A DNA stretch of 64,000 nucleotides from Psammoneis japonica (Eukaryota). Position numbers and translations under genes: made by a program. The notes under the pieces were generated by a model. The model made no database searches and had not been told where the DNA came from. It saw only the letters and a program-made list of their open reading frames with translations. Positions 1,991-57,701 of the stretch are shown in pieces. The stretch spans positions 186,001 through 250,000 of the forward strand of contig QPGO01000106.1 of assembly GCA_008632985.1 (NCBI GenBank), read 5' to 3'. The number at the start of each line of letters is the position of its first letter. Position 1 is the first letter of the stretch.

Positions 1991-2499
1991 AGTCTTTTTC
2001 AGTCGCAAAACAACGCTTTCTTAGTGTGCGGGTCATTGACAACCACAACAAATTTGTCTTGATCCTCATTCTGGTCGTTAACGGGACTCATGTTCGCGGA
2101 ACATACATGCGTACGGGACTCAAATTAGAATCAGCACATCCGCCTATTCCATATTACCGTTTGATCTTTTTCAACAAGCAGCACACAAAAAACACAATGG
2201 CGTCGTCACATCCGTTGAGTGCTGTACAGTGACTTTTGATAGTGACTCCTTGAAAGCAGGGTCCTGCTCTTCATCTGTTATGTTTGCACATGCCCCATCA
2301 CCACATGGCCTTGCTTTTTCCCCAATGTGTGGTTTGTGAGAGCACCGTCACATCTCACAAGCACAGCGCACCTTGCACCCGGAGTTTCACAGGCTGCCGG
2401 CACACGAGAGCTGGCTGGAGCACACAACTTCCAGTCATTCTGAAAAGCAACAACAATGAGAAGCATGAGCCTTGACATCCCCACTCATCCACCACCATC

Positions 2500-3076
2500 T
2501 GACGGTTCTGAAGTCAGAGAATTGCTTCTGAGGAACATCCCGAAATGAAGCAGAAGGCTTGCGACGGAAACGCATTGAGAGCTTTCGCCCTGCTGTCGAT
2601 TCGCTCTGTGCAGGATCAACTCTGGTGCCCAAGGAAGGAAACAATGGGCCCAGACAACCGCACTGGGCTGTTTGCAAGATTTTCTTCAGCAACGAAGAAA
2701 GCGCAAAGAAGAGAGTCACCTGCACCCTGCGCCAAGCGTTTGGTCAGTCAGGCAGAAGATTCGTGTTTGAGCTTCTGCTGTTGCCCAGGACAATTGCAGT
2801 GTCTCAAAGCAGGAGAACAATGTGCTTTGACTGGAACACTTGCCCAAACTGAAGCAAGAAAGGGAAACCACCAGACTGGATCTGAGGCTGTTGAACGCAG
2901 GGGTTCGCAAAATTTCTTTGGAGGAGAGCAACCTGTTTCCTCCAGCACTCAATTCTTTGCAGGCTGCAGTGCAGTTTCCACAGCTGTTGATGGACATTGC
3001 CATCAAACTCAAATTCACTGCGCAGACAAAAACCCAATGACCAAAGCACCCAAATGACAAAGTCCAGGTGTGGACA
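2500..3076 (+). repeat. Dispersed repeat family A, left part of a copy interrupted by the Copia element
   Basis: Aligns by eye with 26600-26985 and 31050-31600, e.g. gcattgagagcttt..gctgtcgatt..gcaggatcaa..ctgg and gagcttctgctgttgcccagga. Confidence 0.8.
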
Positions 3077-3352
3077 TGACAGGATTTGAACAGGATTCAG
3101 GTGCGCGCGAAGCATCGCGCGCTGTTTAGTTTACCGTGCACAGTTTTGTGTGCTTTAATTCCGCGCGTTCACGCGCGATGTAGTTTGCTTTCGAGCCACA
3201 AGGCTCACAAGAACAATGACAGCAGCCCGATCATGCCGACTTGCACGTCTTTCGGCTCCTGCAACGGTCTCTGAGCGGAGACTCATCTGCCATTTAGACA
3301 GCAGCAAGGAGTTGTTGTTTGAATTCTTGCCATTTGCCTTCATTTTCTATCA
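3077..3352 (+). repeat. 5' LTR of the Copia element
   Basis: tgacagga...ttctatca; 18 substitutions versus the 3' LTR, all transitions. Confidence 0.92.
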
Positions 3353-4308
3353 GATTAACAGTCTTGCTCATTGTCAACCCATTGAGCAACCGCCATCGTC
3401 GTCGTTGATTTACCAACGACGCTATTTCAATTCTACGTGGACCTCCGTATGTGTTCTACATACATCGGCAAGTCTACGCGCATCCAATGCCAGGGCATCG
3501 GCAGGAAGTTAACGTCACCGTCAAGTCTCCTTACCGCTGGATATCTGGTTTGATTATAACTGCCTTTGATCGCTGAAGACATACATTCAACGGTCACATC
3601 CAAGTCTATCCTTGATCCTCATCCCTTGATATACCCATTCATCGGTTAACGGTCAAGAACCCTGCATGTTCAAGGATCTTCGTCGCTGAAGACATGTGTG
3701 TGTATGCACATCTTCACGGCCAAGAACCTGTACCCACTCTTCGGACTGCGGTTTTGCCACCACTCTACAGGCACACCGAGTCCATTGTACCTGATCTACC
3801 CCGGACTGCTGGTGCTCTACAGTTCTGCTAAGTCCACGAGGACGACTGTGAGAGCAAGCAGCCGTGATTGCAGCCTGCGTTGGGGCGAGGGTGCTTTCCC
3901 ACGTTTGTTCGTTCGTCCACAGCGCCTGACGCCTGCGTCAACTGGCCAGCCTGATTGGGAAATCCAACCGACATAAAACAAGAACGGTTCGGGGGTCTTG
4001 TCCACCTCTAGTCAGCTCACCTGCAGGGGTTTACAACCCGCTGCTCCGCTTGCAAGCAACCCAAAGCGCCGCTGGCTGCGGGTTCGGACGTGCCGGCACA
4101 ACTCTGCGGACCGGATGGGAAGTTTAGCACTTGACAACGAACGGGATGGCACAACCCGGCGACTTCTGATTTTAAGATAGTCCAAGATTTCAAGTCAAGT
4201 CTAGCTCAAGTCAAGTCTTTTTCAAGCCAAGTTCCAAGTCAAAACTCCGAGTCAAGATCGCGCTCTAGATTGGATCTTGTCTTTTTTTTCTGCTGCACCG
4301 TCCTCCGT

Positions 4309-4801
4309 CATGGTTCTCACGCGACAGCAACAAACCGAAAGCTTCAAATGCATTCTAGGCACTGTGCTCAATCAAGACAATGACAGCCCTCTTCGTTCTG
4401 CCCTGTCCATCAACCGGATTGAATCGTGCGAGGAATTGTTCACGTTCTCACCCACCCAAATTGACGCCCTCACTTGCAGAGACGGCGCCAATGCAGTGCC
4501 TTTGCCACGGACCCACAGAAACCTCCTGGCAGCTTTGATCAGCTTCTACTTTGTCAAAGTTTGCAACGGTGATGATGTGACCAATGAACCCCAGTTGCTC
4601 ACACCCGAGGAATTTCACAACTGCCGCCTTGGTCCGGACCACTTGACTCCTCTAGCCACTGGCGCAGCACCCTCCGCACCTGTGCCGAGTCCCTTGCCAT
4701 CCAAACCAGGTGAACCCAGTGCCATTTTGACACCAGCCTTGCACTGTGCCACCACTCAGGTGTCCCCAGAAGTGGTGTCAGTCGCGCCCCGCATGTCTTG
4801 A
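4309..4801 (+). pseudogene. Copia gag-like N-terminal remnant
   Basis: MVLTRQQQTESFKCILGTVL..DSPLRSAL...IDALTC.. lies in the gag position after the 5' UTR and resembles diatom Copia gag starts (from memory). Tyr-poor. Confidence 0.55.
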
Positions 4802-5121
4802 CCAACCCGCCTGCAAGCAACCTCGGCCCAGTGCAGGATTGCAGCCCTTGCACAGACCCGCACTTCGAGACCAGTTGGGACACTCCACCCATGGCTTCCA
4901 AAGCTGCAGCCTTTGCACCCCGCAAACCACTTGCTGCCAACCTCCACGTGTCGACCGCTGTCACCCTTCACAGTCTTCGTTTGGGAAGTGATGGAGATGA
5001 CAACTTGCTTCTCGCATCTCCTGATGGGGAGCCTCCTTTTCCCGTCATTGAATCTGTTCACAACAGTTCAACCGGTTCATCAGATGGGGAGTTCAGGACA
5101 TCCAAGCAGCTTCGTTGTCTT

Positions 5122-6030
5122 CGGATCCTCCAAGCATCGCACCATGAGACCAGGCCTCCTGACCGGATGCTCCAAGTCTCGCACCTCGAGACCAGGCCTC
5201 CTGATTGGATGCCTCAAGTCTCGTGCCTCGAGACTGGGCCTCCTGATTGGATGCCTCAAGTCTCGTGCCTTGAGACCAGGCCTCCTGACCGGATGCTCCA
5301 AGTCTCGTACCTTGAGACCAGGCCTCCTGATTGGATGCCTCAAGTCTCGTACCTCGAGACTGGGCCTCCTGATTGGATGCCTCAAGTCTCGTGCCTTGAG
5401 ACCAGGCCTCCTGACTGGATGCTCCAAGTCTCGTACCTCGAGACCAGGCCTCCTGATTGGATGCCTCAAGTCTCGCACCTCGAGACCAGGCCTCCTGATT
5501 GGATGCCTCAAGTCTCGTGCCTCGAGACTGGGCCTCCTGGTTGGATCCCCCAAGTCTCGTACCTCGAGACCAAGCCTCCTGATTGGATGCCCCAAGTCTC
5601 GTACCTCGAGATCAGGTCTCCTGATTGGATGTCCCAAGTCTCGCACCTCGAGACTGGGCCTCCTGATTGGATGCCCCAAGTGTCGTACATCGAGACTGGG
5701 CCTCCTGATCGGATGCCCCAAGTCTCGTGCCTTGAGACCAGGCCTCCCAACTGGACTCTCCACGTCTCGTGCCTCAAGACCGGGCCTCCCAATTGGATCC
5801 TCCACATCTCATACCTCAAGACTCGGCCTCCGGATTGGATCCCTCAAGTCTTGCACCACGAGACTCGGCCTCCTGATTGGATCCCCCAAGTCTCGCACCT
5901 CAAGACTTGGCCTCCTGATTGGATCCCCGAAGACTCGTGTCACAAGACTGGCAAGTCCTTTTGGATCCCAGAAGTCTTGCAGCACGGGACTGGTTGCCCC
6001 AATCAGACATCTGCAGCCTTGCACCACAAG
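5122..6030 (+). repeat. 42-bp tandem array of about 20 units inside the Copia element
   Basis: Unit ctcgagac(ca/tg)ggcctcctgattggatgcctcaagtctcg(ta/ca/tg)c, translating as LETRPPDWMPQVS(Y/H/C). It degenerates toward the 3' end. Confidence 0.95.
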
Positions 6031-6629
6031 ATGTCTTGCTCCAATCCGATCCCCACCTTGAGACTCGTTTCTCCAATTGGATCAGTCTCTCAGGAGATGC
6101 AGCTGAGCTTGCAATCGGATTGGTGGAACACAAGACCACCGCTTGTGCCTTTGAACTCATGCTTGCTCTGTTCCCCGAGTCGTGCAAACACCATGCCACC
6201 CTGCACGAGCACTGCTCTGTTTTTCTAGCAGCAGCCCAGTGTGGCAACTGTCCCAAGAACCAACAGACGGACATCAGTCTTTATGACCTTCGCTCAGGAA
6301 GTGAAGGCGATGTCAACTTGTTTGCATTGTCCTGCAATGTTGCCCCGCCGTTCAACATTGTCAACCAGACCAAGCTTTGCTCCTTCCATTGCAAGTGCGG
6401 ATGTGGAATCCCACAAGATCCCAAGTGTGCCTTGAGCTTTGAAAAGCACAACGGCATCTGCAATTGGGGAGACGCAGCTCATCTCAAGATGACCCACTTG
6501 GAGAATGCAACGTTGCTCTTGGATCTTGATCCTTTCTTGTCTCCTCATGTTTTGGTGCTTTGACTCCAAAGTTCTTTAGTCAATCCGAAGTCGAATCTGT
6601 TTCTGTGACTCCTCAAGCAAACTGGGGAG

Positions 6630-6905
6630 TGACAGGATTTGAACAGGATTTGGGTGCGCGCGAAGTGTCGCGCGCTGTTTAGTTTGCCGTGCACAGTTTT
6701 GTGTGCTTCAATTCCGTGCGTTCACGCACGATGCAGTTTGCTTTCGAGCCACAAGGCTCACAAGAACAATGACAGTAGCCTGACCATGCCGACTCACACG
6801 TCTTTCGGCTCCTGTGACGGTCTCTGAGCGGAGACTCATCTGCCATTTAGACAGCAGCAAGGAGTCATTGTTTGAATTCTTGCCATTTGCCTTCATTTTC
6901 TATCA
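6630..6905 (+). repeat. 3' LTR of the Copia element
   Basis: Direct repeat of 3077-3352, followed by the TSD ggaca. Confidence 0.92.
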
Positions 6906-7345
6906 GGACACATGCTCGCGAGTGCTGGCGTGGTGTGCAATGTCCGCCACAGCTTTCAAACAAGTCTGTGCTCTTTCTTGAAAGCACTCATGAGGACCAA
7001 GCTTGAAACTTGATTCAGCAATCTGTTGGACACTGGCAGAGCATGCACCCTGTCATGAGCATGCCATGTCAGGAAACACCGAACATGGGCAAAAGTTTCT
7101 TGCTTGTGTTTGTCCATCTCCAAAAATGGCCAATGCTGTGGACAATGAGAAAACAGTTCTCAGTTGCAAGACAAGCTTGATCTTGTCGCAATGAAGAAAA
7201 CTTGGATGCAACAGTCGAGCCAGTGTTCCATCAATCAAAGAGATCTTGGCTCACTTGGTTTGAGCTCAAATGTTCCTCCCACCAACCCCATCGACTGATC
7301 CCGATGGGTCCAAGTCACTTTCAAAGAAGTTGACAATGCTCAGAA
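6906..7345 (+). repeat. Dispersed repeat family A, right part
   Basis: Continues the alignment with 31600-32050 (acagctttcaaa..ttgaaagcact..gaggaccaagc; gttctcag.tgcaagacaagcttgatct; aatgctcagaa). Confidence 0.8.
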
Positions 7346-7399
7346 CATCTGTCAGAAATCATTTTGTCCCCCACAGTCATGCAATGACAAACTCTGAGG

Positions 7400-7850
7400 A
7401 TGACAAGTTGACAAGGTGCCCGCGCACCGGCCATTTCATCTGCATGAACATGGCGTTGGTGGTGTGGTTTTCCAAGTGCCAAAGTTTGGTTGAAAGCTTG
7501 GTCTTTGAGGGCAAGTTCATGGCCATGAAACAAGGCATTGAGTTGTTGCATGGTCTGTGACATGAGTTGTGAATGATGGGTGTGCCGTCATCTGGTCCAC
7601 CCCACATCTGTGGGAACAATGTGCCATTCGTCCACAATGCGCAAAGTCCAGAGTCCACTTTGAAGAAGAAGTTGAACTCTGTTTGCCACCATGCCGTGAG
7701 GGAGTTTGTGGCAATGGGTGAGTCGCACACTGGGCATGTCTGCTTGGAATGCAATCTGGCAGATCTCACAAATGAGATCATGTGCAGTGGCATGAAGCGA
7801 GATGGACCAGTGCGGATGATCCTCCACAACATTTGTGAAGACTGGCAGTC
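7400..7850 (+). mobile_element. Degenerate Copia RNase H fragment from a second Copia element
   Basis: RTGHFICMNMALVVWFSKCQSLVES...MKQGIE..GL; MMGVP..GPPHICGNN..VHNAQSPESTLKKK.NSVCHHAVRE..AMGE..TGHV....NLADL matches the Ty1-type RNase HI consensus with Tyr changed to His/Cys. Confidence 0.85.
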
Positions 7851-8615
7851 TGTTGCACCCAGCTCTCTTTTCCCACAGGGGTTTGCTGCAGGTTGCCAGG
7901 GTTTCCTTGTCATGTTGAAGTGACCAAATGTGGCCGGAGAGCAAATTGGGTCAAGCCGGCTCGTTGCTCTTGTTTCATCGACTTTTGAGCGAGCTGAAGA
8001 GTTTGCAGTGTGTGCGATCGAACTTAATTTGTGTGCTTTGGCATTGGCGATGGAGCATCTGCAGTGGTCCCTCATGTTTGGTCTCACTTCTGGAAACAGC
8101 AGCACGATGATGCATCATTTCTTTTAGTCTTGTCCCCAGTGCAGTGCGCCATTGCCACATGCTGGCTTCTGCGCGATCAGCTGTCACTGCGGGCAGCACA
8201 CAGACGCAGGAAAGCCTCGCGCGCTGCCGGCATCTACGGTGCTGAGTCGCAGGGTTGCGTGCTGCAGTGGCCCAACGGGAGCCAGCCACAGCAGGCTCCT
8301 TGGTGATTGGGTCTGGAGCTCCCCAGCTCTGTAAAATAGACCTTTGCTATCAACCAAGTTTGAAGCTGCAGTTGGATGGTGCTGTTGAATGCGGCGGTGG
8401 CCGCGTTCAGGGTCCGTGACGGACCCTGAACGGTCCGTCACGCGTAACCATCAAGAATTTTTGGCTTTGTGGAGCCGGTTGTTACGCAATTTCTGCTGTT
8501 GCATGTCTGCTCAGAACACTGCTCCTTTGTAAATAATATTAACACAACATTATCATTACCAGGTCATCCACAAGGATGAGTTCTACAGAACAACAATGGC
8601 AACAACACCTTGGGG

Positions 8616-11063
8616 TTAGGGCGGGGGAGGTGGCGGAGGCGGTGGCGGAGGAGGCGGCGGAAAATTGCAATCAGCGAGGGTAAAGTTACTGAAAAGAATG
8701 TTCTGGCCACTGCAATTGGGACCGCAATCAGATGTGCACTGTTTGCTGAAGCAGCAAGTAACGCTGTTCTGGTTGTTTTCGGGACCGGGACACATGGGAT
8801 CAAAACCATTAACTGGCGTCGGCCCATTTCCATCTGAGAAATAGCATGAAATCTGCTGGTTGCTGTTGCCGGAGACAAGGGGATCACAATTTCCCGGGTC
8901 GACAGTCGTTCCTTGAAGAACAACAAAATTGTAGCAATCGCAGGCGTGTTGCCGGCATTCCGCATCAGTGGGCGGTGTGGGAGGCGGCGGTGGTGGCGGA
9001 GGAGGTGGTGGCGGCGGCGGAGGCGGTGGTGGCGGAGGAGGCGGCGGTGGAGGAGGAGGCGGTGGTGGNNNNNNNNNNNNNNNNNNNNNNNNNNNNNNNN
9101 NNNNNNNNNNNNNNNNNNNNNNNNNNNNNNNNNNNNNNNNNNNNNNNNNNNNNNNNNNNNNNNNNNNNNNNNNNNNNNNNNNNNNNNNNNNNNNNNNNNN
9201 NNNNNNNNNNNNNNNNNNNNNNNNNNNNNNNNNNNNNNNNNNNNNNNNNNNNNNNNNNNNNNNNNNNNNNNNNNNNNNNNNNNNNNNNNNNNNNNNNNNN
9301 NNNNNNNNNNNNNNNNNNNNNNNNNNNNNNNNNNNNNNNNNNNNNNNNNNNNNNNNNNNNNNNNNNNNNNNNNNNNNNNNNNNNNNNNNNNNNNNNNNNN
9401 NNNNNNNNNNNNNNNNNNNNNNNNNNNNNNNNNNNNNNNNNNNNNNNNNNNNNNNNNNNNNNNNNNNNNNNNNNNNNNNNNNNNNNNNNNNNNNNNNNNN
9501 NNNNNNNNNNNNNNNNNNNNNNNNNNNNNNNNNNNNNNNNNNNNNNNNNNNNNNNNNNNNNNNNNNNNNNNNNNNNNNNNNNNNNNNNNNNNNNNNNNNN
9601 NNNNNNNNNNNNNNNNNNNNNNNNNNNNNNNNNNNNNNNNNNNNNNNNNNNNNNNNNNNNNNNNNNNNNNNNNNNNNNNNNNNNNNNNNNNNNNNNNNNN
9701 NNNNNNNNNNNNNNGGAGGAGGAGGTGGCGGTGGTGGTGGTGGTGGTGGCGGCGGTGGCGGTGGCGGAGGAGGAGGCGGTGGCGGAGGAGGCGGCGGTGG
9801 TGGTGGCGGCGGTGGGGGCGGAGGAGGAGGAGAGGGAGGTGGCAGCGGACCGCAGCCTCGTCCATAGCCACCAAGTTTCATAGCGCCAAGACACTCGGGC
9901 TTGTCTTCATCACAGCCTAAATCAGGTATGGTTGGGTCTGCTTGCGTGTCCTTGCAGGGAGCGCAGAACCACCCGCCTTCCAGGTAGTGAGCGGCACAAA
10001 ACGGAGCCTCTGGGGTGCAACCCGAATCGTAAATGTCCATGTCCATGTCATCCTCTACAGCATCGTTCACGCAGATGGCGCACTTGAATCCATAGCCGTT
10101 CTTCGGGGCGACGCAGTGGGCATGGTTGGCGTCGGGACACCCAGGGTCTTCGTCATCTCCGGGGACATTTTGACACAAGAAGCATCCAGAGCCTTCTCCA
10201 TCAGAATCCTCATTGTTGCAAATGGGGAACAAGTAGCTGCATCCATCGTCAATACCCCGATTCTCTGCTGTGTGCTCTGCTGTGTTGCGGCAGATGCCAC
10301 AATAGTTTCCGTTTTCGTCTTCAATGCAGGCAAGTCGTGGTGGGCTGCAGCCTTCATCAGCAATGTCTCTGGGTCGGTCATTTATGCAAGCTTGGCACTT
10401 GGTGCCGTCACAAAATGGGCAATGTTCGTCGCAACCATGGTCCATTTTTCCACGAGGTTTAGTGTCCGAGCAGACGGTGGGAGCGATTGTTGGGGCGAGG
10501 GAAACGGTAGGAGCAGCCGTAGGCATCATCTCGCATTGTTCAGGAATGTGTTTGCCCTCGAGGCTGTAGCCAATGAGCTCGAGAGGACCTAACTTCATTC
10601 CAATGTCAAGAGCTGCGGAGCACGAAGTGTGCACCTCAGGGAAGATAGTATTGTCAATGTGGAAACAAGTGGTGGAACCAAACTTGTGTCCATCACGCTT
10701 AATGGTAAAGGTCTCGCCAACGTTTATTTCACACGTGGAAGTGGAAAAACACGGTTCGACGAATGTGGCACCGTCCAGGGTAATGGGGTACGAGTCGTCT
10801 TCAGTCATGGAAATGCTGCTTCCGCTGCACTCAAACTTGTCTTTGGATGGGTCCTTTAAAGAGGGTTGCACAGGAGAACGATCGCCAGAGGTGCAGTCGC
10901 CACCAATCAGCTTGAAGGTAAGGTGAGCCAGTGCATCCTTGCCGGCACAGCAGGCACTGTTGGGGTCCAGATATTCATCCGAGACGGAAGAGGAAGTTTT
11001 GGGGGAACGGGCCAACACGACCTTTGCGGCCGCAAGCGAGTAGAACGCAAAGGACAACCTCAT
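8616..11063 (-). CDS. Secreted Cys-rich / poly-proline (extensin-like) cell-surface protein with an HTSCS (DUF7467-like) domain; spans an assembly gap
   Basis: ATG at 11063 gives the signal-like MRLSFAFYSLAAAKVVLA. It contains EVHTSCS..L..G.KLGPLELIGY, repeated DxGC..xPxC modules and long poly-Pro runs on both sides of the N-gap. Confidence 0.8.
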   Translation of the reverse strand: MRLSFAFYSLAAAKVVLARSPKTSSSVSDEYLDPNSACCAGKDALAHLTFKLIGGDCTSGDRSPVQPSLKDPSKDKFECSGSSISMTEDDSYPITLDGATFVEPCFSTSTCEINVGETFTIKRDGHKFGSTTCFHIDNTIFPEVHTSCSAALDIGMKLGPLELIGYSLEGKHIPEQCEMMPTAAPTVSLAPTIAPTVCSDTKPRGKMDHGCDEHCPFCDGTKCQACINDRPRDIADEGCSPPRLACIEDENGNYCGICRNTAEHTAENRGIDDGCSYLFPICNNEDSDGEGSGCFLCQNVPGDDEDPGCPDANHAHCVAPKNGYGFKCAICVNDAVEDDMDMDIYDSGCTPEAPFCAAHYLEGGWFCAPCKDTQADPTIPDLGCDEDKPECLGAMKLGGYGRGCGPLPPPSPPPPPPPPPPPPPPPPPPPPPPPPPPPPPPPPPPPPPPXXXXXXXXXXXXXXXXXXXXXXXXXXXXXXXXXXXXXXXXXXXXXXXXXXXXXXXXXXXXXXXXXXXXXXXXXXXXXXXXXXXXXXXXXXXXXXXXXXXXXXXXXXXXXXXXXXXXXXXXXXXXXXXXXXXXXXXXXXXXXXXXXXXXXXXXXXXXXXXXXXXXXXXXXXXXXXXXXXXXXXXXXXXXXXXXXXXXXXXXXXXXXXXXXXXXXXXXPPPPPPPPPPPPPPPPPPPPPPPPPPPPPPTPPTDAECRQHACDCYNFVVLQGTTVDPGNCDPLVSGNSNQQISCYFSDGNGPTPVNGFDPMCPGPENNQNSVTCCFSKQCTSDCGPNCSGQNILFSNFTLADCNFPPPPPPPPPPPPPP
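9069..9714. other. Assembly gap (646 N) inside a (GGN)n poly-proline tract
   Basis: N-run flanked by GGA/GGC/GGT repeats. Confidence 1.
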
Positions 11064-11654
11064 TGTGGTGACAATGTGGATGCCAACGGCGACCTGATAG
11101 AGGAGCAACGGCAACTTGTGGCGCGACTGTTGTATGAACGGTTGGAGTAGACTACTGCTTGCAAGAGCGAAAACGTACAAGAGAAGAAAGAATGAGAGGC
11201 AGTGGAGGTAGAATCGACAAACAGCGACATGACTGTGATGTGTGCATTCAACGACAACAGAGGAGCACGATCATCATCGCTCACGTTGCTCATCAGATGA
11301 CCCTTCCATGGACTCACCTGCCGAAATTATGACAACAAAATTCAGGACCCGTGGTTCGTTCCACCCGCCTAACGTCATACTGTAGGCGTTGTGCGTTGGA
11401 GGCGACCGTTGAAGAAACGACGGACTTTCGGAATTTTTATGTATACAATGAAGTACCCACATCATAAGACACTGTGATGCCACAATACTATAGTGCATCC
11501 AATCACGCCACGTACTCGTGCGTTTTAGTCGTAAGCTGTATCTGTTTGTCGTGCAACGTGCAACCACAGGGCCGTTATTTAAAAATTTTGGAAATTTTGT
11601 CTGCAAGCGTTGTGCGTTAGGCGTTAGGTGACCTCCTTCCGGCTGCACAAATTG

Positions 11655-11990
11655 TGAGCATTCCATTGCATCAGAGAGTCAGTATGAACAATGACGGTAG
11701 AAGCACCAGCAAACGAAAGGATTATGCAAACGCATTCAAAAGAAGCAAACCACCAGGTTATACACGGCCGAGGGTGGTGGCCGCATAGGAGCACAAGAAT
11801 TCTTAGAAACGAAAAGAGCCATGGCAACACGTGTTTCCATTGCGTCACCCAACAACAAAGGACATTCATCGGACACAAAGAAAAAGATTTGGGATGTAAG
11901 GCTAGATATCTTTGCTAGACTTCTCGCAGAGGCCTCAGATAGTGAGGTTGCCGATCTCCTCCCCGATGCCGCAGAACATCGTCATGCTGT
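11655..11990 (+). repeat. Lightly mutated fragment of repeat family A
   Basis: Homologous to 30212-30537 (atgaacaatga..gaagcaccagcaa; ttcttagaaa.gaaaagag.catggcaacac; acacaaagaaaaagattt) but retains TpA and CpG. Confidence 0.85.
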
Positions 11991-12183
11991 TTTCAGGAAG
12001 TCGCCGCAAAAGCGTGGAAAGTCTGTCGCGGATACTTTCCACTTTATTTTAAAATAGTATTCATATATATGAAAATATATAAATATTCATATGTTATGAA
12101 TAACTTAGATTTCCCTTTTCATATTGCCCTTACAACCTAAGTAATTTTGGTTCGCAACCGTTGAGTGATTATGTTTTATATAT

Positions 12184-14300
12184 TAAGACTGACTAAATAA
12201 AAAGGAAACCATGGAAAACAGACAGACGTGATGGTTACTTTTGAGAAAAAAGCAAAAAACCATCACGCGCACCGCAAACCGCAGCAGCACCATGGAGACG
12301 CCGCTGTGTTCATAAAAAGCGACCGTCACTGGGACAATATCACACGGTTAAAAGCATTGACATAAGGTAATACGAATCTGTCGAGTATGCTGGTGGTGTT
12401 TGTTTTTTGGTGTCATCTAAAATTCTTGTTGCAACACTCTGTTTAGATGGACAGCATGTTTGTGGTTTCTCTGCGACTCGGCTATATTCATGAATCGACC
12501 CTCACTGGAACAACATCACATGATACAGAGCATGGACATAACTCAATATGAATGTGACGAGTATGATGGTTGTGTTTGTTTTTTGATGTCGTCTAAAATT
12601 CTTGTTGCTGCACTCTGTTTGGATGATTTTGTGTGGTTTCCACGCGACTCGGCTGTGCTCCGCATTAATGAAGCGACCATCACTGGGTCAATGTCACATG
12701 ATTAACATCATGGATATAAGGTAATATGAATGTATCGAGCATGATAGTTGTGTTTCTTTTTGGCATCGTCTAAAATTTTTGTTGTCGTGCACTCTGTTCA
12801 GATGGACAGTGCCGCCGACGTGATCGCTCCAACCAATCAACCGTGCCAGCAGGGACCACATGGACGCGCCAAAATTTCCTCAATGGTAGAATAGTTAAGA
12901 GTGGAGTGAAGGGTTTGCATGTGCTGTTGCACTTCAGCAGCTGCAGTTGGATGCAATGCCGCAATCGGAAGCATTTGTTGTTGTAGACCATGCGGGTTGA
13001 CGAAATTCGGGTTGACGAAATGCGGCGGCGGCGGGGCGGCAGCAGCAGCTGGTGCTGCAGGTTGCTGGGCTGTAAAATGTGGTTGAGTGGCAGGAACAGC
13101 TGGGGGTTGAGTGGATGCAGCAGCAGCAGCGGCAGTGGGAGATTGTCTTGATCTCGAATTGGAGACAGTCTTTTTGCTCCTTTTGGCCTTGTCTGCTTTT
13201 GACTTGTTGTGTCTGTCGATCATTGCTTGTGGTGGTGTGGGGCAAATCTCATCCTGATGCTCCACTGGAACATGCTTCCTCCATTTTTGTCCCAAGCTCT
13301 ATTTGTTTAATGTCGGGAATTCCAGGAAATGGAATGACCTGGGGTGCCGCCTGCAAGAGCTCCATTCTGTTGCTGTTGGTCCCAGGCTTTTTGAATTCTC
13401 TTGTGGCAGTCTCACCTTGATCCTCCTCCCGGCAAGACACCTGAATTTTCATGTCAGTTGGCGAGGCTTTTGTCACAGAAAAGATGTGGCTCTTGTGGAC
13501 GGTGCTGGGGGCGAAGCATCGATGCAATGAATCGAGTTTCTTGTCCCAGTCTTGGAAGTCTTCCTCGTCCACAGCGGTGGCGGCAGCATTCTCGTTTTCA
13601 TTCAACAATTCCATCATTTGCTTGAAGGCACAGACATTGGAGTCTCTGCATGGCTTTTTCAAGATGTCGCACATCCGGTCGCAAGGGTTCTTTGTGTGCC
13701 CGACTGCAAGAAACACAAACTGTGCGGTTTGACAGAATCCCCGCTCAACCAAGCAGAGGGCCAGCCGAAGAACCATCCTGTTCTTGTTCTGACCCAAGCA
13801 GTTGTCCACAACAACAGCAAGCTTTACTCGAATTTGCTTTGCTGTTCCATCATCATCAACCTCCAAATGCCCTTTGTCCTTTGAGATGCTTCACAATGAG
13901 TGATGCGACGTTGTTGCCTCCTTTTTTACCTTGGCCGTCGTCCATTACGATTGTGGACGAAAGACAGTTGCTGCTGCGGGAAAATGGTGTGCATTCTATT
14001 TTCTGAAAAAAATAAAAATGGCTGCCAAAAGTGTACCAGCGGCAACAACAGTAGCTTCTTACGTGGCTGACAAAGTGCGTGGTATGCAATTTACGCGCAT
14101 TTTGAAGAGTGCGCGCGTCCGGTATGCGATCCCATGGAAACCCCAAGATTGGTGCCATTTTTCAAGAAATCGGACCCACAAAATGACCGACACATCGTTT
14201 GAAAGCATTTTTGCTCTAGTTTTCACTAATGCCAAAAGCAAAAAACTCAATTTTTGGCCCAAAATTGGCAAATGGTGACCTTTCTATTTAGTCAGTCTTA
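12184..14300 (-). mobile_element. Deleted TIR DNA transposon with a Sola-like (DUF7869-type) transposase remnant
   Basis: TIRs taagactgactaaataaaaaggaaaccat (from 12184) and the reverse complement of atggtgacctttctatttagtcagtctta (to 14300) match 26/29; the outer TA may be the TSD. Transposase motifs at 13249-13950: GKKGGNNVASL; DNCLGQNKNRMVLR...FLAVGHTKNPCDR. Confidence 0.8.
12270..12810 (+). repeat. Three copies of a roughly 177-bp subterminal tandem repeat
   Basis: aata.gaat.t..cgag.atg..gg.tgtgttt.ttttt....c.tctaaaatt.ttgttg...cactctgtt recurs at about 12369, 12546 and 12723. Confidence 0.85.
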
Positions 14301-14863
14301 TGTGGTAATAAAGTGTTCATTGAAAGAGGGCATTATGACCGTTTTTGATCAATGACTTTCCACGATAGAATTGCAAGATCTAGACGACTTGATATCCCTG
14401 GTCCGCGCATCGTTGCGCTTTTGTGCAACAGTGTACTACGATTTTTGGGTCACAGTCATTTTCCGGTCATTCTCCACACCGTTGTAGGAAAGTGCAGCCA
14501 GGATTATATATACATGTATGTCATTAGCATGTCGAATGCCCCATTCGGCACGAATATCCATATTTAAATAATGGCGCTCAAAATATTATCCCTGTAGAAT
14601 TCTACGTCAATTCGAGTACAAACCGCGTTGTACTTTTCCGCAACGTGGCGATTTTCACGACCAAAAATGTGTCCTCTTGCTGGTTGTCTTATGAAAGCCA
14701 CCTCAGGTTGTTTAACACTGTCCAACCGCCAGACACAATCATTAAAGCCTGCTTTAACTTGTTGGGTCAGGTCAGGTGTCAAATGACCGGCTTGGTCGAT
14801 TGTCAAGGACAGCACAAAACCACGCTGCACTTTCGCGCAACGTGAATGCGAGGACCAGGGACA

Positions 14864-17800
14864 CAAGAAGAGACCCGATCATTCAGCGCAATCGCTGATC
14901 GGAACTGACTTCTAACGGCTTCTTGAACACCTGATGCGTCAGTCAATGCACATGTGTCAGAGAGAGCACACTCGGTCACAGAGCACATGTGCGCCCATCT
15001 CATGCTCACTCTTCCCCTCCATGGTGCAAGAATCACGCGCACCATTGGAACCACTTGACTCAAATTTAAACTCCAAATGTGCAAGGAGAAGGAAAACCAG
15101 ACGTTGGGAAGAAACCCTCAACTCTGATGCGGTGCCACGTGACGAATGTCAGTCCGCTCAATGACGTGTGGTGCTCGCAGCACCGAAGCTGTCGCGTTGG
15201 CGTGGACTTGTGCGCAATTCGAAATGGGCCATGAGCTCGAGCTTCCAGCTTCGCTGGATCCACGGACTTGACTGGCACATCTTGTCCCACTGGACAATCA
15301 CAAGAATGGCAATTTGCGTTCTGTCGTCGCAGGTTTTCGTTGACAAGCACTTGACGGTTGGCTTGAACAGCAGCAAGATCAGAGGGGACAGGCAGATCCA
15401 AAATCATGTCTCATTGGAGTGCCAATGCTCCACTTGAAACACCCATGGACCTTGAGTGAGAGCATCGCAATGCAAAGGAGGCTGTGGCAAGGGCATCATC
15501 CACTGTTTGCTCGGCCTGTTGAATGTTCAAAGATGGGTCAGCAGCAGCCACAGCTCGCAAAACATTGCCACCGTTTGGTGCATTCGTTCACAAATCAAAT
15601 TGGCTGCAGGACTCCATGAGGTCATCGGAGCATCTTCGATGCTGGCCTGGTTTGACAGCATTTGAAATTCCCAACCAATGAATTCACCGCCGTCATCATG
15701 GATGCATCGATTCGGTCTGGGACAACGAGCCAACCAAAGGTTGCGGAACTTGTTGGCAACGTGTTGAGAAGTTTTGTTGTCAATGCGCATGAGTTCAGTC
15801 AGGCCAGCAACAGTGTCAACACAAGTCAGGGTGCTGAATTCAATTTCTTGATCTTGATCATTGTTCTCCATGGCCCGATGAGGTCAACTGCCACTTCCGA
15901 CCACGGAGCCAATGGTGCTTGGCATTCAGGCAATTCTCCATGTCCCGGACCAAGTTGTTTGAAATGTTGACAGGTGTTGCATGCAAACTCATTACAACGC
16001 CAATGCAATGCAGGGTGATGCATGTGAGTGCGAATGCTTTTGTGCAAATGAACAACTCCACAATGACCCAATGCACGATGATGCCACGTGAGCATGTCAG
16101 GCAACAATGCAGTTGGAGTGCAAATTTTCCATGCTCCAGGTGGATCATTCAAGTGCAGACGATGACACACAAGAGGACGCTGGTTCACAATCTTGACCAC
16201 AAATTGCTGCGGGTTCTGTTGTCTCTGTTGACTCAGTTGCTGGTCCTCAAACTGGAGCTGTTGCATCCACAATGTCTCGGTGGGACTCGGCATCTTGTCC
16301 AGTGTCGGACAATTCAAAAAGCATTCAAACAATGCAGGTTCATCAAGCAGAGAAGAAAAGGCATGAGACTCATCAGAAGGATTGACAGGAGCACGGCAAC
16401 ACTTGAACCTGCAAGCGCCCAACTCTAAATCTTCTTCTTCCTTGGCCTTGCTCAATTCACTGCTGTCTGACTTTTCAAAATGAACAATTTTTCCTTTGCC
16501 TTTGCGTTTGCCACTTGGTCCAAGGCTCTTCCCCTCCAAAGGCGGATCCATGCATGGGAGTCAAGAAAAACAATCGGCGAGCACATTGTCCTTGCCTTTG
16601 ACACATTTAAACGCAGGCGCAAAATCTTCAAGGAATGGATGCCAACGCAGGACGCGCTGTGCATTCAAAGTGCAAAAGGTGAGATTCTTGTGGTCAGTGT
16701 GAACAGTGACATCAGCACCGAGCGACATTGTGCGAAATTCTTTGGAGCACATGATGACAGCCAGGAGTTCTTTTTCCATTGTTGAACAGTTGCGTTGAGC
16801 CGCTGAGAGCTTTTTAGACCAGTGTGCCACAGGTTTGTCATCTTGGATGACAGCTGCACCCATGTGGCAGTCGGGTGCATCGGCACACACATGGAACGGC
16901 AGGTTGTGGTTAGGATGGGCCATGAGAGCTTCCGCTGTGATCACTGCTTTCATTTCCTCAAATGCTTTCTGACATGCACCTGACCAATGGAACTGGCTTT
17001 TGCCTGTTGGTTCCGTCAAAGGTGCAAGCAAGTGAGAACGACAAGGCCACATGTTGCGACAACGGGTTGCTGCACCCAAAAAGGAGCAAAGTTGCGTGGT
17101 GTTCCATGGAGGTTGCATTCGCAGAATGGCTTCGACCTTTTTCTTCCACGGTTTGACGCCAGTTGGAGTGAGCCAATGTCCCAGGAAATCCGTTTCTTGG
17201 ACACACCACTCGCATTTCAATGGGTTGACTTTCAACCCATTCTCTTCCAGACGATGTGACACCTTGTCAAGACAAGAGAGATGGCAGTCAAAGTCAGCAT
17301 CAAAGGCGCCAATGTCATCAACACAAGTTTCAACATCCAAGCCATGCAAAATCTTTTCAATGATGGACTGAGCAATGTCTGGAGCTGGTTTCAATCCCAT
17401 GGCCATGCGGCAATGTTGGAACTTTCCGCAAGGGGTTGCAATCATCGCCAGCTCCTTGCTTTCGTCATCCAACTCCAAGTTGCAGTGGAGCATGGTGAGA
17501 TCAAGTTTGGTGAAGAACTTGTGTCCCGCTCTCCACTGCAGCACATCTTGGATTGCCGGCAAAGGATGGACTTTCCACTTGAGCACCTTGTTCAGTTCAC
17601 GGAAATCAGATGCCCATTGCACTCGGCCGTCCTGCTTGGAGCAATGAAAGCACCAGGTGCCCACTCCGCAGGTCCACATGGTCGCAAGACTCCCAGGTCC
17701 ACCAAATGCTTCAGCTCCTTTTCAAATGCTTCCTCATTGACACGAGCGACAGGAAAAGGTTTTGAGTGATGGGGCACAGCATTCTCATCCACCTCCAGGT

Positions 17801-20503
17801 GTGCCTTTTCATGAGGACAGTGACCCAAAGTGCCATCAAACAAGGTTGAGCATTTTTCCAACACCGCCAATGACTTCGTCTTTTGCTCTTCCGTCAGGTG
17901 ATCTGGGTTGCAAACCACTTCCGCAGGATCCATCTCTTCACACTTGGCATCCAACATGCAGCTGTCATGTCCATCATCACATCTGCAGCTCAATTCGTCC
18001 TCTCGCAATCTTCGCCGAATTCATCCATTCAGTCCAGGGCAACATGCCAGTTGCAGGACTTGGACCAATGACAAGGCTCCTTCATCGGAATGATGCGGTC
18101 CAACCAACACAAAGTTCCTGTGTCACAATTTAAATGGAGCCCAATTTTGTCCAGGAAATCTTGACCCAAAATGATGTCATGCGCACACGGAGCATCAAAC
18201 ACATGAGCCACACACCCATCAACCCTTCTGGTCTTGTTGAATTTGGGCAGTGCAATGTCACTCAGAGCCACCCAACAACCTGACTGGAAAGGACCTGCAA
18301 CGGTTTGAAAAGCTCGTGCTCCCTGCTCATCAATGGATGGCACAGCTCCATGAGGCAAAACTTGAGAAGAGATCATGGTGTGAGAGCCACCAGAATCAAA
18401 TGGCGCATGCATCGCACGATTCGACTCATGACACTGGATCAATTTGGCAACTGACAGAGTTGATGGGACCAATGCAGTGCGCGAGACTTGCAGACCCATT
18501 TTGGGGAGAGGAACATTGTGCTCAAATGCATCTTGATTGAACACGTCCCCCTCTTCATTCACGCAACATTCTGCAGCATCTTCAAATTCAACAGGCGACA
18601 ATTTGTCAGGATTTTCAAAACAATCAAAAGCAAAACTTTCAGGCAAATTTTCAGGCACAATGCAATCATCTTCAACAATTGCTTCACATGCAGGCAATTG
18701 GGAGCATTCAGCTCCGGAGCATTCAGCTCCTTCTTCTCAGAACTGCCAAGGAAACTGCCCATCTGGCTGAAACCTCACCACACCTCCGGAACGTGGAGGG
18801 CCTCGTCCAATCATGTCGAAATGGTGCGTGTCACCACGAGGAGCTTCTCAAGCCTGGTTGTCATTCACATTGTCTGCTTGAGCAGCACAGCCGTCGGCCT
18901 GACCTTGGCCACCACGATTGTTGTCATCATTGCAATGATGTTGGCCACCACCACCTTGGTTGCCACTGTTGTTTTGATCCCCATTGTTGTTGTTGTGTTG
19001 CAATTGTCACAATGGGCACCACGACCTCCTTGGTTTTGGTTGCCACGACCGCCAAAGCATCCACCGCCACCATGGCCAGGACCACGGCCTCCTTGGAAGC
19101 AACCTCCACCTTGACCTCCACCGCCACGACCTCCACCTCGACCGCCGTGGTTTTGAGGCCCACGACAGTTGGGGTTGTTTGGACTGTCTCAACACTGGCC
19201 CCATGCGTGTCTTCCATGATGCCACGGGACCGGACATGGATCACCAGCCTTGGGTTGACCCTCATTGTCCTTCTTGTCACGGTTGCCCTTTTTGTTGCTG
19301 GAGTTCCCTCCGTTGCCATTGTTGGACTTGCATTTCTTGTTGTCCTGACCATCGGCAAACACCTTCTCGTCACTCATGCAGGCTTGAACATCCACCATGG
19401 AATTTGCAACAAGATTCTTGCCCGCACGAACATGGGGCTGCTGCCATGTCAAAGGAAAGGTGCAGAAGACAACATTTTTCTGTTCCTGCTCTGTGAGTTC
19501 AGGGATGGTTCCAGGCAAACAGTTGGCACAGCGAAGTGGAGTTTCCATGCAATCAACATGCATTGCAGATTCCGCGGAGCAAGGTTTCTTGCAAGCAGGC
19601 AAGTGCATCTTCATTGTGTCAGGAGCTGTTGGTTTCACACAATGCAGACAGTGATCCGTGATGGCTTGATTGAACCAAGCTGCCGTCCTTTGATTCTGTG
19701 GAATGCCTGCCATGACACTCTGCCACTTTGCCTCCGCAGTGCCTTGCAAGCAATCCTCAAAGGCATCAAAGAGTTCCGTTCCGGTGTCACAATCCAATTG
19801 TCTTGCCACCTTCCAAAAACGATCCTCCACATGCAACGACGATTCAATTCCATGTTCTCCTGTAAAAATCGGACACATCTTTGACGGCTTGGTTCCATCG
19901 TCAAAAGTTTGAGCAAGTTTCACTTCAGGCAATTCCGAATCCAAGAATTTGGTTTTATGCTCAATGCATGCTTTCTCCAAGGCTTCTTGACACATGACGA
20001 TGAACAATTTCAGCGATCAAAGAATCAACAATCCACACAACAAACAAAACAATGTGCTCCCAATTGATCCACACAACAAGAACAATCAATGACCAAACAA
20101 CAAATTCAAGTGTGGCAACACGAGCTTCGAGTTCAAACAAACGCTGCTCCGAGTTGCCAATTTCATGAGCACAATTGTGCTGAGGCTCCGATTGATTTCT
20201 AATGAAATTTTCTGCATGAGCACGTAAACAAGCTTTCTCTCTTTTTGACAGCACTCTGCATGTTGTCATGAAATGGATGACACAATGAGCAAGCTGTGAC
20301 AATGACTGCAACTGCAGTGCAAGATCTGGCTTGAGACAGACTTGATAAAACAGGTTGTGAGAGAACCAAGAAGAGACCCGATCAGCACAATCACTGATCG
20401 GAACTGACTTCTGACGGCTTCTTGAATGTCCAATGCATCAGCTGACACACACACACACATCAGAGAGGGCACACTTGGCCATGGAGCACATGTGCCCATC
20501 TCA
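14864..20503 (-). mobile_element. Ty3/Gypsy LTR retrotransposon, near full length, hypermutated
   Basis: 5' LTR 20332-20503 (TGAGA...TCTCA). Truncated 3' LTR 14864-15002 with PPT (minus-strand ggaggggaagag) at about 15007-15020. Gene order is gag (about 19190-20250), protease (FDSGGSHTMI, DIILGQDFL, about 18100-18480), RT (DFRELNK, HPLP, CVDD), RNase H (DAPD, EKELLAV, TDHKNL), then integrase (H..LGHCG..C..CQ, VAVDLIGPW, CIHDDGGEF, GPF). Confidence 0.95.
16561..17760 (-). pseudogene. Gypsy RT-RNase H, inactivated
   Basis: The 372-aa ORF 16561-17679 has clear RT/RH motifs but no tyrosine at all; catalytic YxDD reads CVDD. Confidence 0.93.
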
Positions 20504-20524
20504 TTCAAGAATTGCATCATGGAG

Positions 20525-21035
20525 TGCTTTCCACGATGCTGTCATGGAAAGTGAAGACTTTCCACGATTGCAACGTGGAAAGTCACATGACTTTCCACGA
20601 TGACTTTCCACCTTTCGAGGCTCATGTAAATGCCTGTGCATAAAATGGGGTCACATGAAAAAATTTTGATCTCATTGCAATGCCTTGATGCCCACAAATC
20701 TTGCCATTTTCCAACATGATTTTGGAACAACTGGTTTAAGAGCCGGGCTCGGTCTCGTCAGGAGGCCTTGGTGCACACATCAAGAACTTCGCATGCCTTT
20801 CGAAGACGTTTCACCACGGCATCAAGAAGCAACGACGATGCTTCAAGGCTGTGTGCATGATTGCACAATGCCAGTTGGGTGGAATGTGGCTCACCCCTCT
20901 TTGACATTTAGAGTGTGTGATGTCACATCACAATGTTTCTGGTCATTGACATTTGACAAATGACTTTCCACGATGAGCAGTCACCAATGACTTTCCATGA
21001 CATTCAATGACTTTCCACGATGGACTTTCCATGAT
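20525..21035. repeat. Cluster of GACTTTCCA(C/T)GA(T) motifs in both orientations
   Basis: About ten copies at 20527-20611 and 20961-21034, plus one at about 14353 on the other side of the Gypsy element. Confidence 0.75.
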
Positions 21036-21320
21036 GCGACCACCTTCCATTGAATTGTGGCTGCATTGAACAATCGTTGTGTGCAGCGGCTGAATGTGTT
21101 TGAATTGATTGGGCAGCAAGCATTTTTTCAATGGAAAGTGAGAGGGCAATGTGTGGATTCAGATGTCCTGTTCACGTGACCCCATTGCAGATTCTATGCT
21201 GAGAAGTGCGAGCCTGCCCCAACAGCAATCTTTCGCGATGTAGAGTCACTGCGCAGAAATTGTGCAGGACAGCACCAAGACAAGTCTGTCTGTCTGTCCT
21301 CAGTGAATTTTAACTTTGCG

Positions 21321-21413
21321 AAAAATGGATTTGACTGTTTTCTGATCAGGTGCATTTTTCTTCAACACATTTGCAAAAATGCACCTGACCCGACAACAGT
21401 CAAGTCTGTTTTT
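21321..21413. repeat. Imperfect inverted repeat with 39-bp arms and a 15-nt loop
   Basis: aaaaatggatttgactgttttctgatcaggtgcattttt pairs with aaaaatgcacctgacccgacaacagtcaagtctgttttt. Confidence 0.8.
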
Positions 21414-24400: not shown

Positions 24401-26169
24401 TCCAAAAGGGGGCAACTTTTCCCAAAAGTTTGCACTGCGCTTGAAAGCTCAATTTTTCTGGGCATTTTTCTACCTGGTGTGGGCAGCAGGTTTTGATTAA
24501 CTCAACTTGAGTGAAGCAAGAGAGTCAGCTTGCAAAAGCAACCCAGGCATTCAAGTGAGGAGAACTGACAACTGCACAAGCACCCACCACCAAAGGTGTC
24601 TCCTCTCAAGGACAAGGAACAACATTTGAAGCAAAGTGCAACATGCAGACAAGGAGCTTGTGCAGAAACAGAGTGTCTGGCCACAGCACCGGTGGCTGCA
24701 ACAAAAGGCAAAGCAAGAAGCCAGAGCAGGAGCAAGAGCCGGTGCAGAGAGGAGAGTGGTGTGTGCTGTGCACTGAAGAGCTGGGTGGAAGGGGTGAAAA
24801 AAATGCCAAAAAGGAAAAATTGTGAGACTGTTTTGGGCACCAAAAGCAAGCAGTTGAGAGATGCTCTGCAGTGTGTCATGTGACTTGGCAAGAGAGCTCA
24901 TTGGAGATGACGCAGCAGCTGAAAGTGTGTCAAAAGAGTTTTTATGAATGTGATGGGCCATTTTCGTGCCCCATGTTTGTGGCCAATTTGTGGCTCTCAA
25001 TGTTCAAATTTGGCACTGGCAAGTGCATTGTGCACGCAAAACAAGGTGTTGCAAGCATTGCAACAGCTTTGTTGTCATTGCAGCGACTGCTTTGCACAAT
25101 GGAATTGACATTGTCATCTCTTGTGTCATTTGCCAAAACAGCAAATCATTTTCTGTCTGCGGCACATTTTGCCTGCCTCAATTGAGGCAGTTTTTGCTGC
25201 CTCAATTGAGGAAAAAACCCAGCAGACTGGACACTGGCCAGCTGCTGGTGCAGTGGAATGGGGGGGGGTGAATGTTGGTTGTGATGCCAGCCAATCGCAC
25301 ACTGAAAATTGGCTCTTGCACTTGCCCGTGTGATGAAGGTGCTCCACAAAAAGTTGGCTCCATTTTGAAGTGCCAGATGCCATGAACAACACACACCTGT
25401 TGCACTCTTGCAAGACATTGGTTTGAAGAGCAGGACACCAACAATGCTCACATCTTGGGCACTTTGTGAGACTTCCAAAAAATTTGAGTCGAGCGGGTCA
25501 CACGGGATTCATGACTCATGACTCGGAGCATGCAGGGGACCCTTTCTCAACACCAAGACAGACAACAACATCACAACAGAGCATTTTTGTGGCAACACTT
25601 TGCTTTTTAATTTGTCTTTGACCATGTGACAACTGCATTTGACCTCTTTCATGCAACAAATTGGCAAAACAATCCATGAACACTCATTTGCAAGCCACAC
25701 TTTTCTGTTTTGAGATTTGACATTTGTGTCTTTGCGATGAATCTAGAGCAGATGCGAGCCAGGGAGGAGCTCTGTTCACTGCCATTTGTCATTGTGACAC
25801 AGAGCAACAGAGCAAGAATGACTTTGTCAACACTGTCAGACTGTGGATTGTCCACAGCCAGTCAAATGCCAGCCATCGGCCTTTCCTGGAAAGCCGCAGC
25901 TTGCCAACCTGAACAGTCTAATTTCAGTGAAAAATGGCAGTTTGTCAAATGCAACTGCCACACCAAATGCAACAACTGGCATTTGAAGGTTGACAAGTGC
26001 AGTTCATGCACAGGTCCAACAGCCCTGATGAGGGTTGGTCATGCTCACAAGTGTTTGGGGGTGCTCAGAGGCATTGAAAAGCAGCGCGAGTGAAGTGCAG
26101 ATAAATTGACAATCACAAGCCATTGAAAAAAACACTGCTGAATGATGATCCATCCTCAAGGCCTGGGTG

Positions 26170-32050: not shown

Positions 32051-32352
32051 AATCTGCTGGAAATTGTTTTGCACCCCAGCCATGCAACAACTAACCTGCT
32101 CATCAAACATGCAGCAAAACAAATGGCTCCAAGGTGATGAGCAATGGCCCACTTGGTGTTCAAAATGTGCTTCTCTTCTTGCCTCCTTTTTCGTGCTTGT
32201 GGAAATTTGAACATTTGTTTGAGACCATTGGAAAAAGCTCCTGTGTTGCGGCTGCTGCTGTTTTGGCTGCTCTTTGACACAACAGCTCATCTGCACTGAA
32301 TTTTAAATGTCATGGCACCATTTGTGTGGGGGGTCAAACTGTTGTGTCTGGC

Positions 32353-32358
<6 letters not shown>

Positions 32359-32389
<31 letters not shown>
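32359..32389. repeat. (AG)15 microsatellite
   Basis: Directly visible. Confidence 0.95.

Positions 32390-32394
<5 letters not shown>

Positions 32395-56564: not shown

Positions 56565-57701
<1,137 letters not shown>

Follow-up and report, generated by a model that had tools for sequence, protein, structure and literature searches.

Several systems are known in which mobile elements accumulate mutations of a restricted type. In Neurospora and other ascomycetes, repeat-induced point mutation (RIP) converts C:G into T:A pairs at CpA dinucleotides, thus creating TpA and lowering the GC content. Silenced transposons, such as vertebrate Alu sequences or plant elements, undergo decay of methylated CpG, and APOBEC3- or ADAR-type enzymes act on single-stranded complementary DNA (cDNA) or on RNA and leave changes of one polarity. 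Here these systems are compared with a long terminal repeat (LTR) retroelement of the diatom Psammoneis japonica, found at positions 3077-6905 of a 64,000-nt stretch (positions 186,001 to 250,000, forward strand, of contig QPGO01000106.1, assembly GCA_008632985.1; hereafter the window, whose own numbering is used), the two LTRs of which differ almost only at TA, CG, TG and CA dinucleotides. We consider it reasonably likely that this non-autonomous element entered a repeat already free of TA, and that both LTRs were then hit by two context-bound transition processes that operate in repeat domains.

The closest description of such a process is a preprint on Bigelowiella natans (Mettrop et al., bioRxiv 10.64898/2026.01.13.699255). 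According to its text, 231 of 302 new mutations in mutation-accumulation lines fell in two integrated viral regions, and these mutations, nearly all of them T/A to C/G, lay on TpA without exception and on either strand; an adenosine deaminase was proposed as their cause (10.64898/2026.01.13.699255). The targets described are giant-virus and virophage DNA present as single-copy insertions, with a rate raised about 1000-fold, and over the long term TpA is depleted and CpA+TpG raised in 1-kb windows that cluster together and are rich in reverse-transcriptase (RT) domains (10.64898/2026.01.13.699255). As far as that text goes, the diatom locus resembles B. natans in its A to G or T to C changes at TpA, giving TpG or CpA on both strands, in their local confinement to foreign or repeat DNA, and in the same trace of TpA depletion with CpA+TpG enrichment. 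There are also differences from what the preprint gives: B. natans is a rhizarian alga with viral insertions as targets, whereas in the diatom LTR elements and other repeats are concerned; its depletion is mild (Rho TpA 0.45), whereas TA is nearly erased here (observed/expected ratio, o/e, 0.05); its mutations were measured as new ones in culture lines, whereas the diatom process is read from the sequence pattern; CpG decays alongside here; and the diatom TA changes show a preference for an A before a pyrimidine (T-A-Y) that the preprint text does not mention. A term search of the whole preprint text gave no occurrence of 'diatoms' or of LTRs, and a full-text literature search returned no diatom report of the process, its results being confined to papers on RIP in fungi and to the B. 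natans preprint itself.

The 5' LTR (3077-3352, + strand, 6 TA and 20 CG) and the 3' LTR (6630-6905, + strand, 4 TA and 17 CG) are both 276 bp long and align without indels, with 18 nucleotides differing at 13 sites (93.5% identity; a separate repeat search lists the pair at 94%). All 18 changes are transitions, against 0 transversions. Five sites are doubles, at which one LTR reads CA and the other TG (LTR positions 22-23, 37-38, 166-167, 186-187 and 237-238), four oppose TA to CA or TG (positions 57, 80, 105 and 147), three oppose CG to TG or CA (positions 88, 99 and 152), and the single other site is a T/C difference before C at position 155, which directly precedes a former TA (3232). When 18 transitions were placed at random on the LTR 100,000 times, CA/TG doubles had a mean of 0.16 and a maximum of 3, none of the placements reaching the observed five, and a pyrimidine-purine share as high as 12 of the 13 sites was obtained in 4 of the 100,000 (mean share 0.50). 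The LTR length, site counts and classes reported in the preliminary description of this locus are thus exact, and the pattern lies far beyond chance.

The insertion itself is well preserved. The sequence GGACA flanks the element on both sides (3072-3076 and 6906-6910, + strand), and a paralogous, uninterrupted ('empty') site at 31465-31710 (+ strand) reads through with a single GAACA (31595-31599), so the element came in by a single clean insertion that duplicated 5 bp of target. The left flank (2280-3071, paralogs at 26436-26977 and 30871-31548) and the right flank (6911-8024, paralog at 31620-32087) belong to the same older repeat and are devoid of TA: target duplications included, there are 0 TA in 797 bp on the left (2280-3076) and 0 in 1,119 bp on the right (6906-8024), versus 56 within the element, 38 of those in its first 1.13 kb, so the element must have inserted after the host repeat had been stripped. 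This host repeat is of the same family as the copies of about 780 bp at 26200-26977 and 30549-31403, which lie 4.4 kb apart, are 80-82% identical, and may themselves represent the LTR pair of an element that is older and has been stripped completely.

Both LTRs have the TG...CA ends of their kind (TGACAG...CTATCA), and a purine tract AAACTGGGGAG (6619-6629, + strand), polypurine-tract-like as read from the sequence, abuts the 3' LTR. Behind the 5' LTR, where a tRNA primer-binding site would be expected, GATTAACAGTCTTGC does not start with TGG, so that no site of that type is evident, judged by its start letters only, no tRNA comparison having been made. The interior comprises a leader-like part that has kept its TA (3353-4209, + strand, 32 TA, o/e 0.66), a first open reading frame (ORF1, 4277-4801, + strand, 174 aa) for which neither a Pfam family nor a homologue was found, and a second (ORF2, 4798-6228, + strand, 476 aa), also without Pfam family, which contains a 42-bp (14-codon) tandem array of 20 units (5123-5962, + strand). 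As no Pfam family, and thus no gag-pol coding capacity, was found in the three ORFs of the 3.3-kb interior, the element is predicted to be non-autonomous, and its sequence features are those of a LARD-like (large retrotransposon derivative) LTR retroelement of a very abundant family. A protein search with ORF1 gave 124 candidates, none of them significant, one with the LTR-frame peptide gave no candidate, and an exact look-up of four plus-strand LTR and internal ORFs in a protein collection found 0 of 4. Within the 64-kb window, blastn of the element found only itself, and exact-pattern scans for family copies gave 0 matches in metagenome contigs, in contigs of prokaryote genomes and in viral contigs.

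The family is nevertheless clearly very abundant. In contigs of four runs from one sample, summed depth, which is not a copy number, was 74-115 in the flanks versus 196,000-364,000 in the LTRs (2,600-4,900 times the flanks), 48,000-127,000 in the leader and 4,500-15,000 in the ORF part. The family also has structural subvariants, since in other copies 10 nt are inserted after 6053 and 133 nt are deleted between 6197 and 6331.

The element lies in a window that is bimodal in its TA content, with o/e values per 1 kb of 0.00-0.12 in repeats versus 0.4-0.8 in genic parts, and in this profile TpA changes are confined to repeat DNA, the neighbouring genes being spared. In 500-bp bins (12 bins that were intermediate or contained N being excluded), the stripped repeat domains (61 bins, 30.5 kb) hold 104 TA (o/e 0.05), with o/e values of 0.36 for CG, 1.68 for CA and 1.72 for TG, versus 1158 TA (o/e 0.60), 0.94 for CG and 1.25 for both CA and TG in the normal genic parts (55 bins, 27.5 kb). 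Scaled for length, the stripped domains lack about 2,100 TA+CG and have gained about 1,730 CA+TG, a rough mass balance for the conversion of TA and CG into CA and TG, and as CA and TG are equal in amount the process is strand-symmetric. The largest TA-stripped domain extends over 15001-33000 (TA o/e 0.00-0.10 per kb).

In which direction did these changes run? At the level of domains and of the family, it is from TA to CA or TG and from CG to TG or CA, as a coding relic, a paralog pair and family variants all indicate. A gypsy-type RT/RNase H relic (16564-17679, - strand) has 0 Tyr in 372 aa and its YLDD box reads CVDD, and among the 16 Ty3 tyrosines in the alignment, 5 are matched by His, 4 by Cys, 1 by Arg and none by Tyr; its composition is raised in Cys (22), His (19) and Trp (13). 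In a paralog pair of which one member lies in a normal domain (11653-11979) and the other in a stripped one (30209-30530), the polarised changes are 6:0 for TA to TG/CA and 10:1 for CG to TG/CA. Variants of the element family amount in total to 160 transitions versus 19 transversions, and among the 40 of 181 variants listed, 18 single sites that read TG or CA in the studied copy read TA in 14-71% of the family depth, with only 3 in the reverse direction; in the leader (3353-4209) the listed variants are mostly TA elsewhere and TG or CA here. Over all repeat pairs in the window, CA/TG doubles number 45 and no other type of double exceeds 6, and a pair within a normal domain (40619/41946) shows mostly transversions (52) and only 2 CA/TG doubles. 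Within the element, columns 18-19 of the 42-bp array, over its 20 units, read TA 7, CA 6, TG 7 and CG 0 at a Tyr/His/Cys codon, the trimorphism VSYLE, VSHLE and VSCLE being a protein-level read-out of the TA process. The (TG)n run at 3696-3709, where TA is found per step in 22-59% of the family depth, is a former (TA)n microsatellite rewritten to (TG)n.

This direction separates the diatom repeats from RIP. Both are repeat-directed, restricted to transitions and bound to a dinucleotide, both kill transposons and inflate LTR ages, but the diatom changes run the opposite way, TpA being lost while CpA and TpG accumulate. They are also not exclusive to TpA, since CpG decay proceeds alongside, with the 10:1 ratio of the polarised pair, a CG o/e of 0.36 versus 0.94, and 3 of the 13 LTR sites.

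The survival of TA in stripped relative to normal bins varies with the flanking nucleotides, from 0.00 for ATAT and for ATAC/GTAT (0 of 87 and 0 of 180 left), through 0.02 for GTAC and 0.25 for CTAA/TTAG, to 0.39 for TTAA, and the TA that survive in stripped bins are chiefly TTAA, CTAA/TTAG and GTAA/TTAC. This implies that the preferred target on each strand is an A before a pyrimidine (T-A-Y). The rule holds for 16 of 18 polarised single sites of the family, versus a baseline of 58%, although five of these 16 sites belong to a single former (TA)n run and so do not count independently. Between the two LTRs, the 3 single TA losses that are informative all follow T-A-Y, and 2 of the 3 TA common to both LTRs are TTAG, a resistant context. 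CpG survival by tetranucleotide has the much narrower range of 0.26 to 0.63, and no CpG context can thus be called 'hot'.

For the five CA/TG doubles, the proposal had been that one palindromic dinucleotide was hit on opposite strands in the two LTRs, and this stands as the best reading, since flips within a single LTR, gene conversion and cDNA editing, all considered below, fit poorly. It entails a class of sites hit in both LTRs on the same strand, which pairwise comparison hides, and two direct examples of that class are found in the family depth: at 3217-18, where both LTRs read TG, C makes up 31% and A 37%, so at least 6% must read TA and the site is a former TA in the LTR, and at 3232, where both LTRs read CA, 71% of the depth reads TA. 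If such hidden double hits are taken to equal the visible doubles in number, the sites can be tabulated under either ancestry. With TA as ancestor (3 intact, 3 lost in the 3' LTR only, 1 lost in the 5' LTR only, 10 lost in both), independence of the two LTRs is acceptable (p=0.099); with CG as ancestor (17, 3, 0 and 10), it is rejected (p=9.5e-6, or 1.2e-4 for isolated CpGs only). The statistics thus favour TA, and the five doubles were probably mostly former TA; some former CG are likely among them, giving a mixture.

Several points weigh against such an origin of the doubles in TA. The doubles exceed what the single differences predict, as 3 intact TA with 1 and 3 single losses would give about one site hit in both LTRs, so heterogeneity among sites must be assumed; three of the five stand in asymmetric contexts (TTAC, GTAA, TTAT), so that one LTR must have changed in the disfavoured direction; and an ancestry entirely in TA needs about 17-20 TA in 276 bp (o/e 1.0-1.2), more than the 0.6 of genic parts. 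CA/TG dimorphism can moreover derive from CG in this element, as columns 23-24 of the array read CG 11, TG 5, CA 4 and TA 0, and columns 29-30 form a CA/TG column with one CG; the family site 3758-59, with G slightly above T, hints at residual CG. The 40 of 181 family variants listed include none of the 13 LTR sites. Finally, the LTR alleles come from one assembly of a very high-copy repeat; a contig connects just one of them, the 5' allele of site 22-23, with unique flanking sequence, and the run behind this contig may be the one from which the assembly was made.

Given these points, the five doubles might have the same post-integration origin and yet be mostly or all former CpG, heavily methylated, with the TpA process having produced only the four TA sites. 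The array columns 23-24 and the TA-rich ancestral LTR demanded by an all-TA ancestry speak for this, as do the three LTR sites that oppose CG to TG or CA and the CpG depletion of the repeat domains. Methyl-CpG decay likewise gives CG to TG/CA changes, leaves CA in one copy and TG in another where a CpG once stood, and depletes CpG in repeats only; the three LTR sites and the array columns 23-24 are changes of this type. However, both LTRs retain 17 CpGs, while just 3 have gone from one LTR and 0 from the 5' LTR alone, with which 10 sites hit in both are not compatible under independence; the candidate contexts (TCGG, GCGT, TCGC, GCGA and TCGT) have an ordinary survival of 0.28-0.50; at 3901 and 4051, 95-99% of the family depth has retained CpG, versus only 14-71% for TA sites; and the ancestral LTR would need a CpG o/e of about 1.7. 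We therefore regard an origin of the doubles chiefly in CpG as rather improbable. Methyl-CpG decay cannot account in any case for the loss of TA, for the replacement of Tyr by His or Cys, or for trimorphic TA/CA/TG sites without CG.

The abundance of the family raises two further explanations, both of which we judge unlikely. Ectopic gene conversion from polymorphic family copies would need no double hit in situ, and it would have ample donors, given an LTR depth of 2,600-4,900 times the flanks, variants dominated by transitions (160 versus 19), and CA/TG dimorphisms near 50:50 in the family at 3758-59 and 4073-74. On the other hand, an A at LTR position 82 (3158 and 6711) is present in both LTRs where all 60 of 60 aligned contigs of one run (X1) read G, it lies only 2 and 6 nt from the differences at positions 80 and 88, and the differences are scattered over positions 22-238 instead of forming one tract. 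This A, an allele not seen among the aligned contigs, is a private marker of the studied copy or of its source. The same marker bears on an artefact of assembly or polishing, in which short reads from thousands of copies would have imposed family alleles on both LTRs, an explanation to which we give just as little credit. The very high copy number of the family, differences falling only at site types that are polymorphic in it, and a gap of 646 N that shows the assembly to be unfinished are consistent with an artefact, but the private A has survived in both LTRs, a contig of single-copy depth (2849-3103, 0 other letters) links the CA at 22-23 to the unique left flank, and polishing can yield neither the domain-wide pattern nor an RT relic without Tyr.

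Another possibility is that CA became TG, or the reverse, within one LTR alone, by two successive changes with TA or CG as a transient intermediate. An unmutated/mutated paralog pair does contain 4 doubles with CA in the unmutated and TG in the mutated member, and two Ty3 histidines stand opposite Cys in the RT relic, which may be CA to TG flips or family differences. Intermediates should, however, outnumber finished flips as long as TA and CG are far from exhausted, and the LTRs would offer 1 TA and 0 CG versus 5 flips; TA amounts, moreover, to only about 1.6% of CA+TG in the saturated domains (104 versus 6,465), so entry into TA must be slow. Single-LTR flips are thus very unlikely.

The preliminary description had placed the changes in chromosomal DNA after integration, and the intact insertion, the same signature in non-LTR repeats, and the lack of a fixed strand polarity per LTR bear this out. 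The derived alleles are CA 4 and TG 2 in the 5' LTR, and TG 4 and CA 4 in the 3' LTR, whereas editing of single-stranded cDNA intermediates would predict one polarity per LTR, and the same signature marks the flanks and non-LTR repeats; although editing of retroelement cDNA by APOBEC3 deaminases is known elsewhere, we hold such editing, or errors of reverse transcriptase before integration, to be extremely improbable here. The diatom pattern does resemble the action of APOBEC3- or ADAR-type enzymes if it represents enzyme-driven, clustered transitions against mobile elements, but both strands have been hit after integration, and flanking non-LTR DNA too. The two LTRs are not equally affected: if TA, CG and the T of the family are ancestral, the 3' LTR is derived at 7 of the 8 single-difference sites, and TA o/e drops from 0.66 in the 5' third of the element to 0.08-0.12 in the remainder. 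This suggests either an uneven exposure along the element or a source copy that was already mutated. Polarity within the LTR pair is known for TA site 80 only, from the loose contig end of another family copy.

The termini TGACAG...CTATCA had been taken to imply an ancestral inverted repeat TGATAG...CTATCA. Loose 3' ends of other family copies read ...CTGTCA(G), both in run X2 at 3346 and in the consensus of run X1 behind 6873, and as CTGTCA is already a perfect inverted repeat of TGACAG, either polarity is possible. A process that runs from TA to TG would allow CTATCA as the older form and CTGTCA as its product, in which case TGATAG is a possible ancestral 5' end. The suspicion that LTR dating is inflated in this genome proved justified for this pair, because the raw divergence is 6.5% (18/276), whereas the 132 positions that lie outside pyrimidine-purine steps hold 1 difference, and transversions number 0.

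Taken together, the following sequence of events can be proposed. An element of a very abundant LTR family would have landed in a repeat already without any TA, and would then have been exposed to a strand-symmetric process changing TpA into TpG or CpA (A:T to G:C), with a preference for T-A-Y, and to a second, slower decay of CpG into TpG or CpA; wherever the same palindromic dinucleotide was hit in both LTRs on opposite strands, a CA/TG double would have resulted, whether from TA or, in some cases, from CG. The chemistry of the first process may be adenine deamination in DNA, or an equivalent lesion on the T at TpA, and that of the second would be deamination of methyl-cytosine. Both would be aimed at silenced repeat chromatin, through an enzyme and a targeting signal which might still be active today. 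The idea of a hydroxymethyluracil of the dinoflagellate type was dropped, the spliced-leader motif having 1 match with 2 mismatches versus 0.33 expected.

Other features of the window complete the picture. Not every repeat in it is stripped, as a 176-bp tandem repeat (12317-12809, 2.8 copies, 76% matches) lies in a normal-TA domain. A repeat pair at 14857-15003 and 20360-20504 opposes a TGTG to a CACA run; this 150-bp pair around the gypsy relic was considered as a second LTR pair and rejected as too short and too diverged. The 646-N assembly gap lies within a GGN-rich (Gly-coding) repeat region (9001-10000), which an 854-aa ORF with a DUF7467 domain adjoins (8616-11180, - strand). In a normal-TA domain, a ubiquitin-NiSOD (nickel superoxide dismutase) fusion gene without apparent introns is found at 57090-57698 (+ strand), within an ORF at 56634-57701; the Atlas cluster closest to it (score 0.94) occurs most often in Bacillariophyta, as a lead only.

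What the LTR pair adds to domain statistics is proof of timing: starting from identical DNA, both strands were changed, and this happened later than an event that can be dated. For the studied element, the LTR age is inflated about ninefold or more (6.5% raw versus at most 0.8% outside pyrimidine-purine steps). In addition, transposon ORFs lose Tyr together with two of the three stop codons, so that six-frame ORFs and gene callers are misled, and CA, TG and TA are to be handled as one state when repeat consensus sequences are built. More tentatively, and with less confidence than in the history proposed for this element, diatoms may defend themselves by chromatin-directed DNA editing, in which the A of T-A-Y is changed on either strand of silenced transposon DNA. 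Such a defence would be of the same kind as the rhizarian TpA system and maybe an old 'reverse RIP' shared by lineages of the SAR (stramenopiles, alveolates and Rhizaria) group, and the young LTR pair would show it at work after insertion. A targeted mutator from A:T to G:C, opposite to fungal RIP, has so far been described, on the evidence of its text, only in the one 2026 preprint on an unrelated alga. If the diatom process is real and enzymatic, it would make a second eukaryotic lineage with such a mutator of invading DNA.

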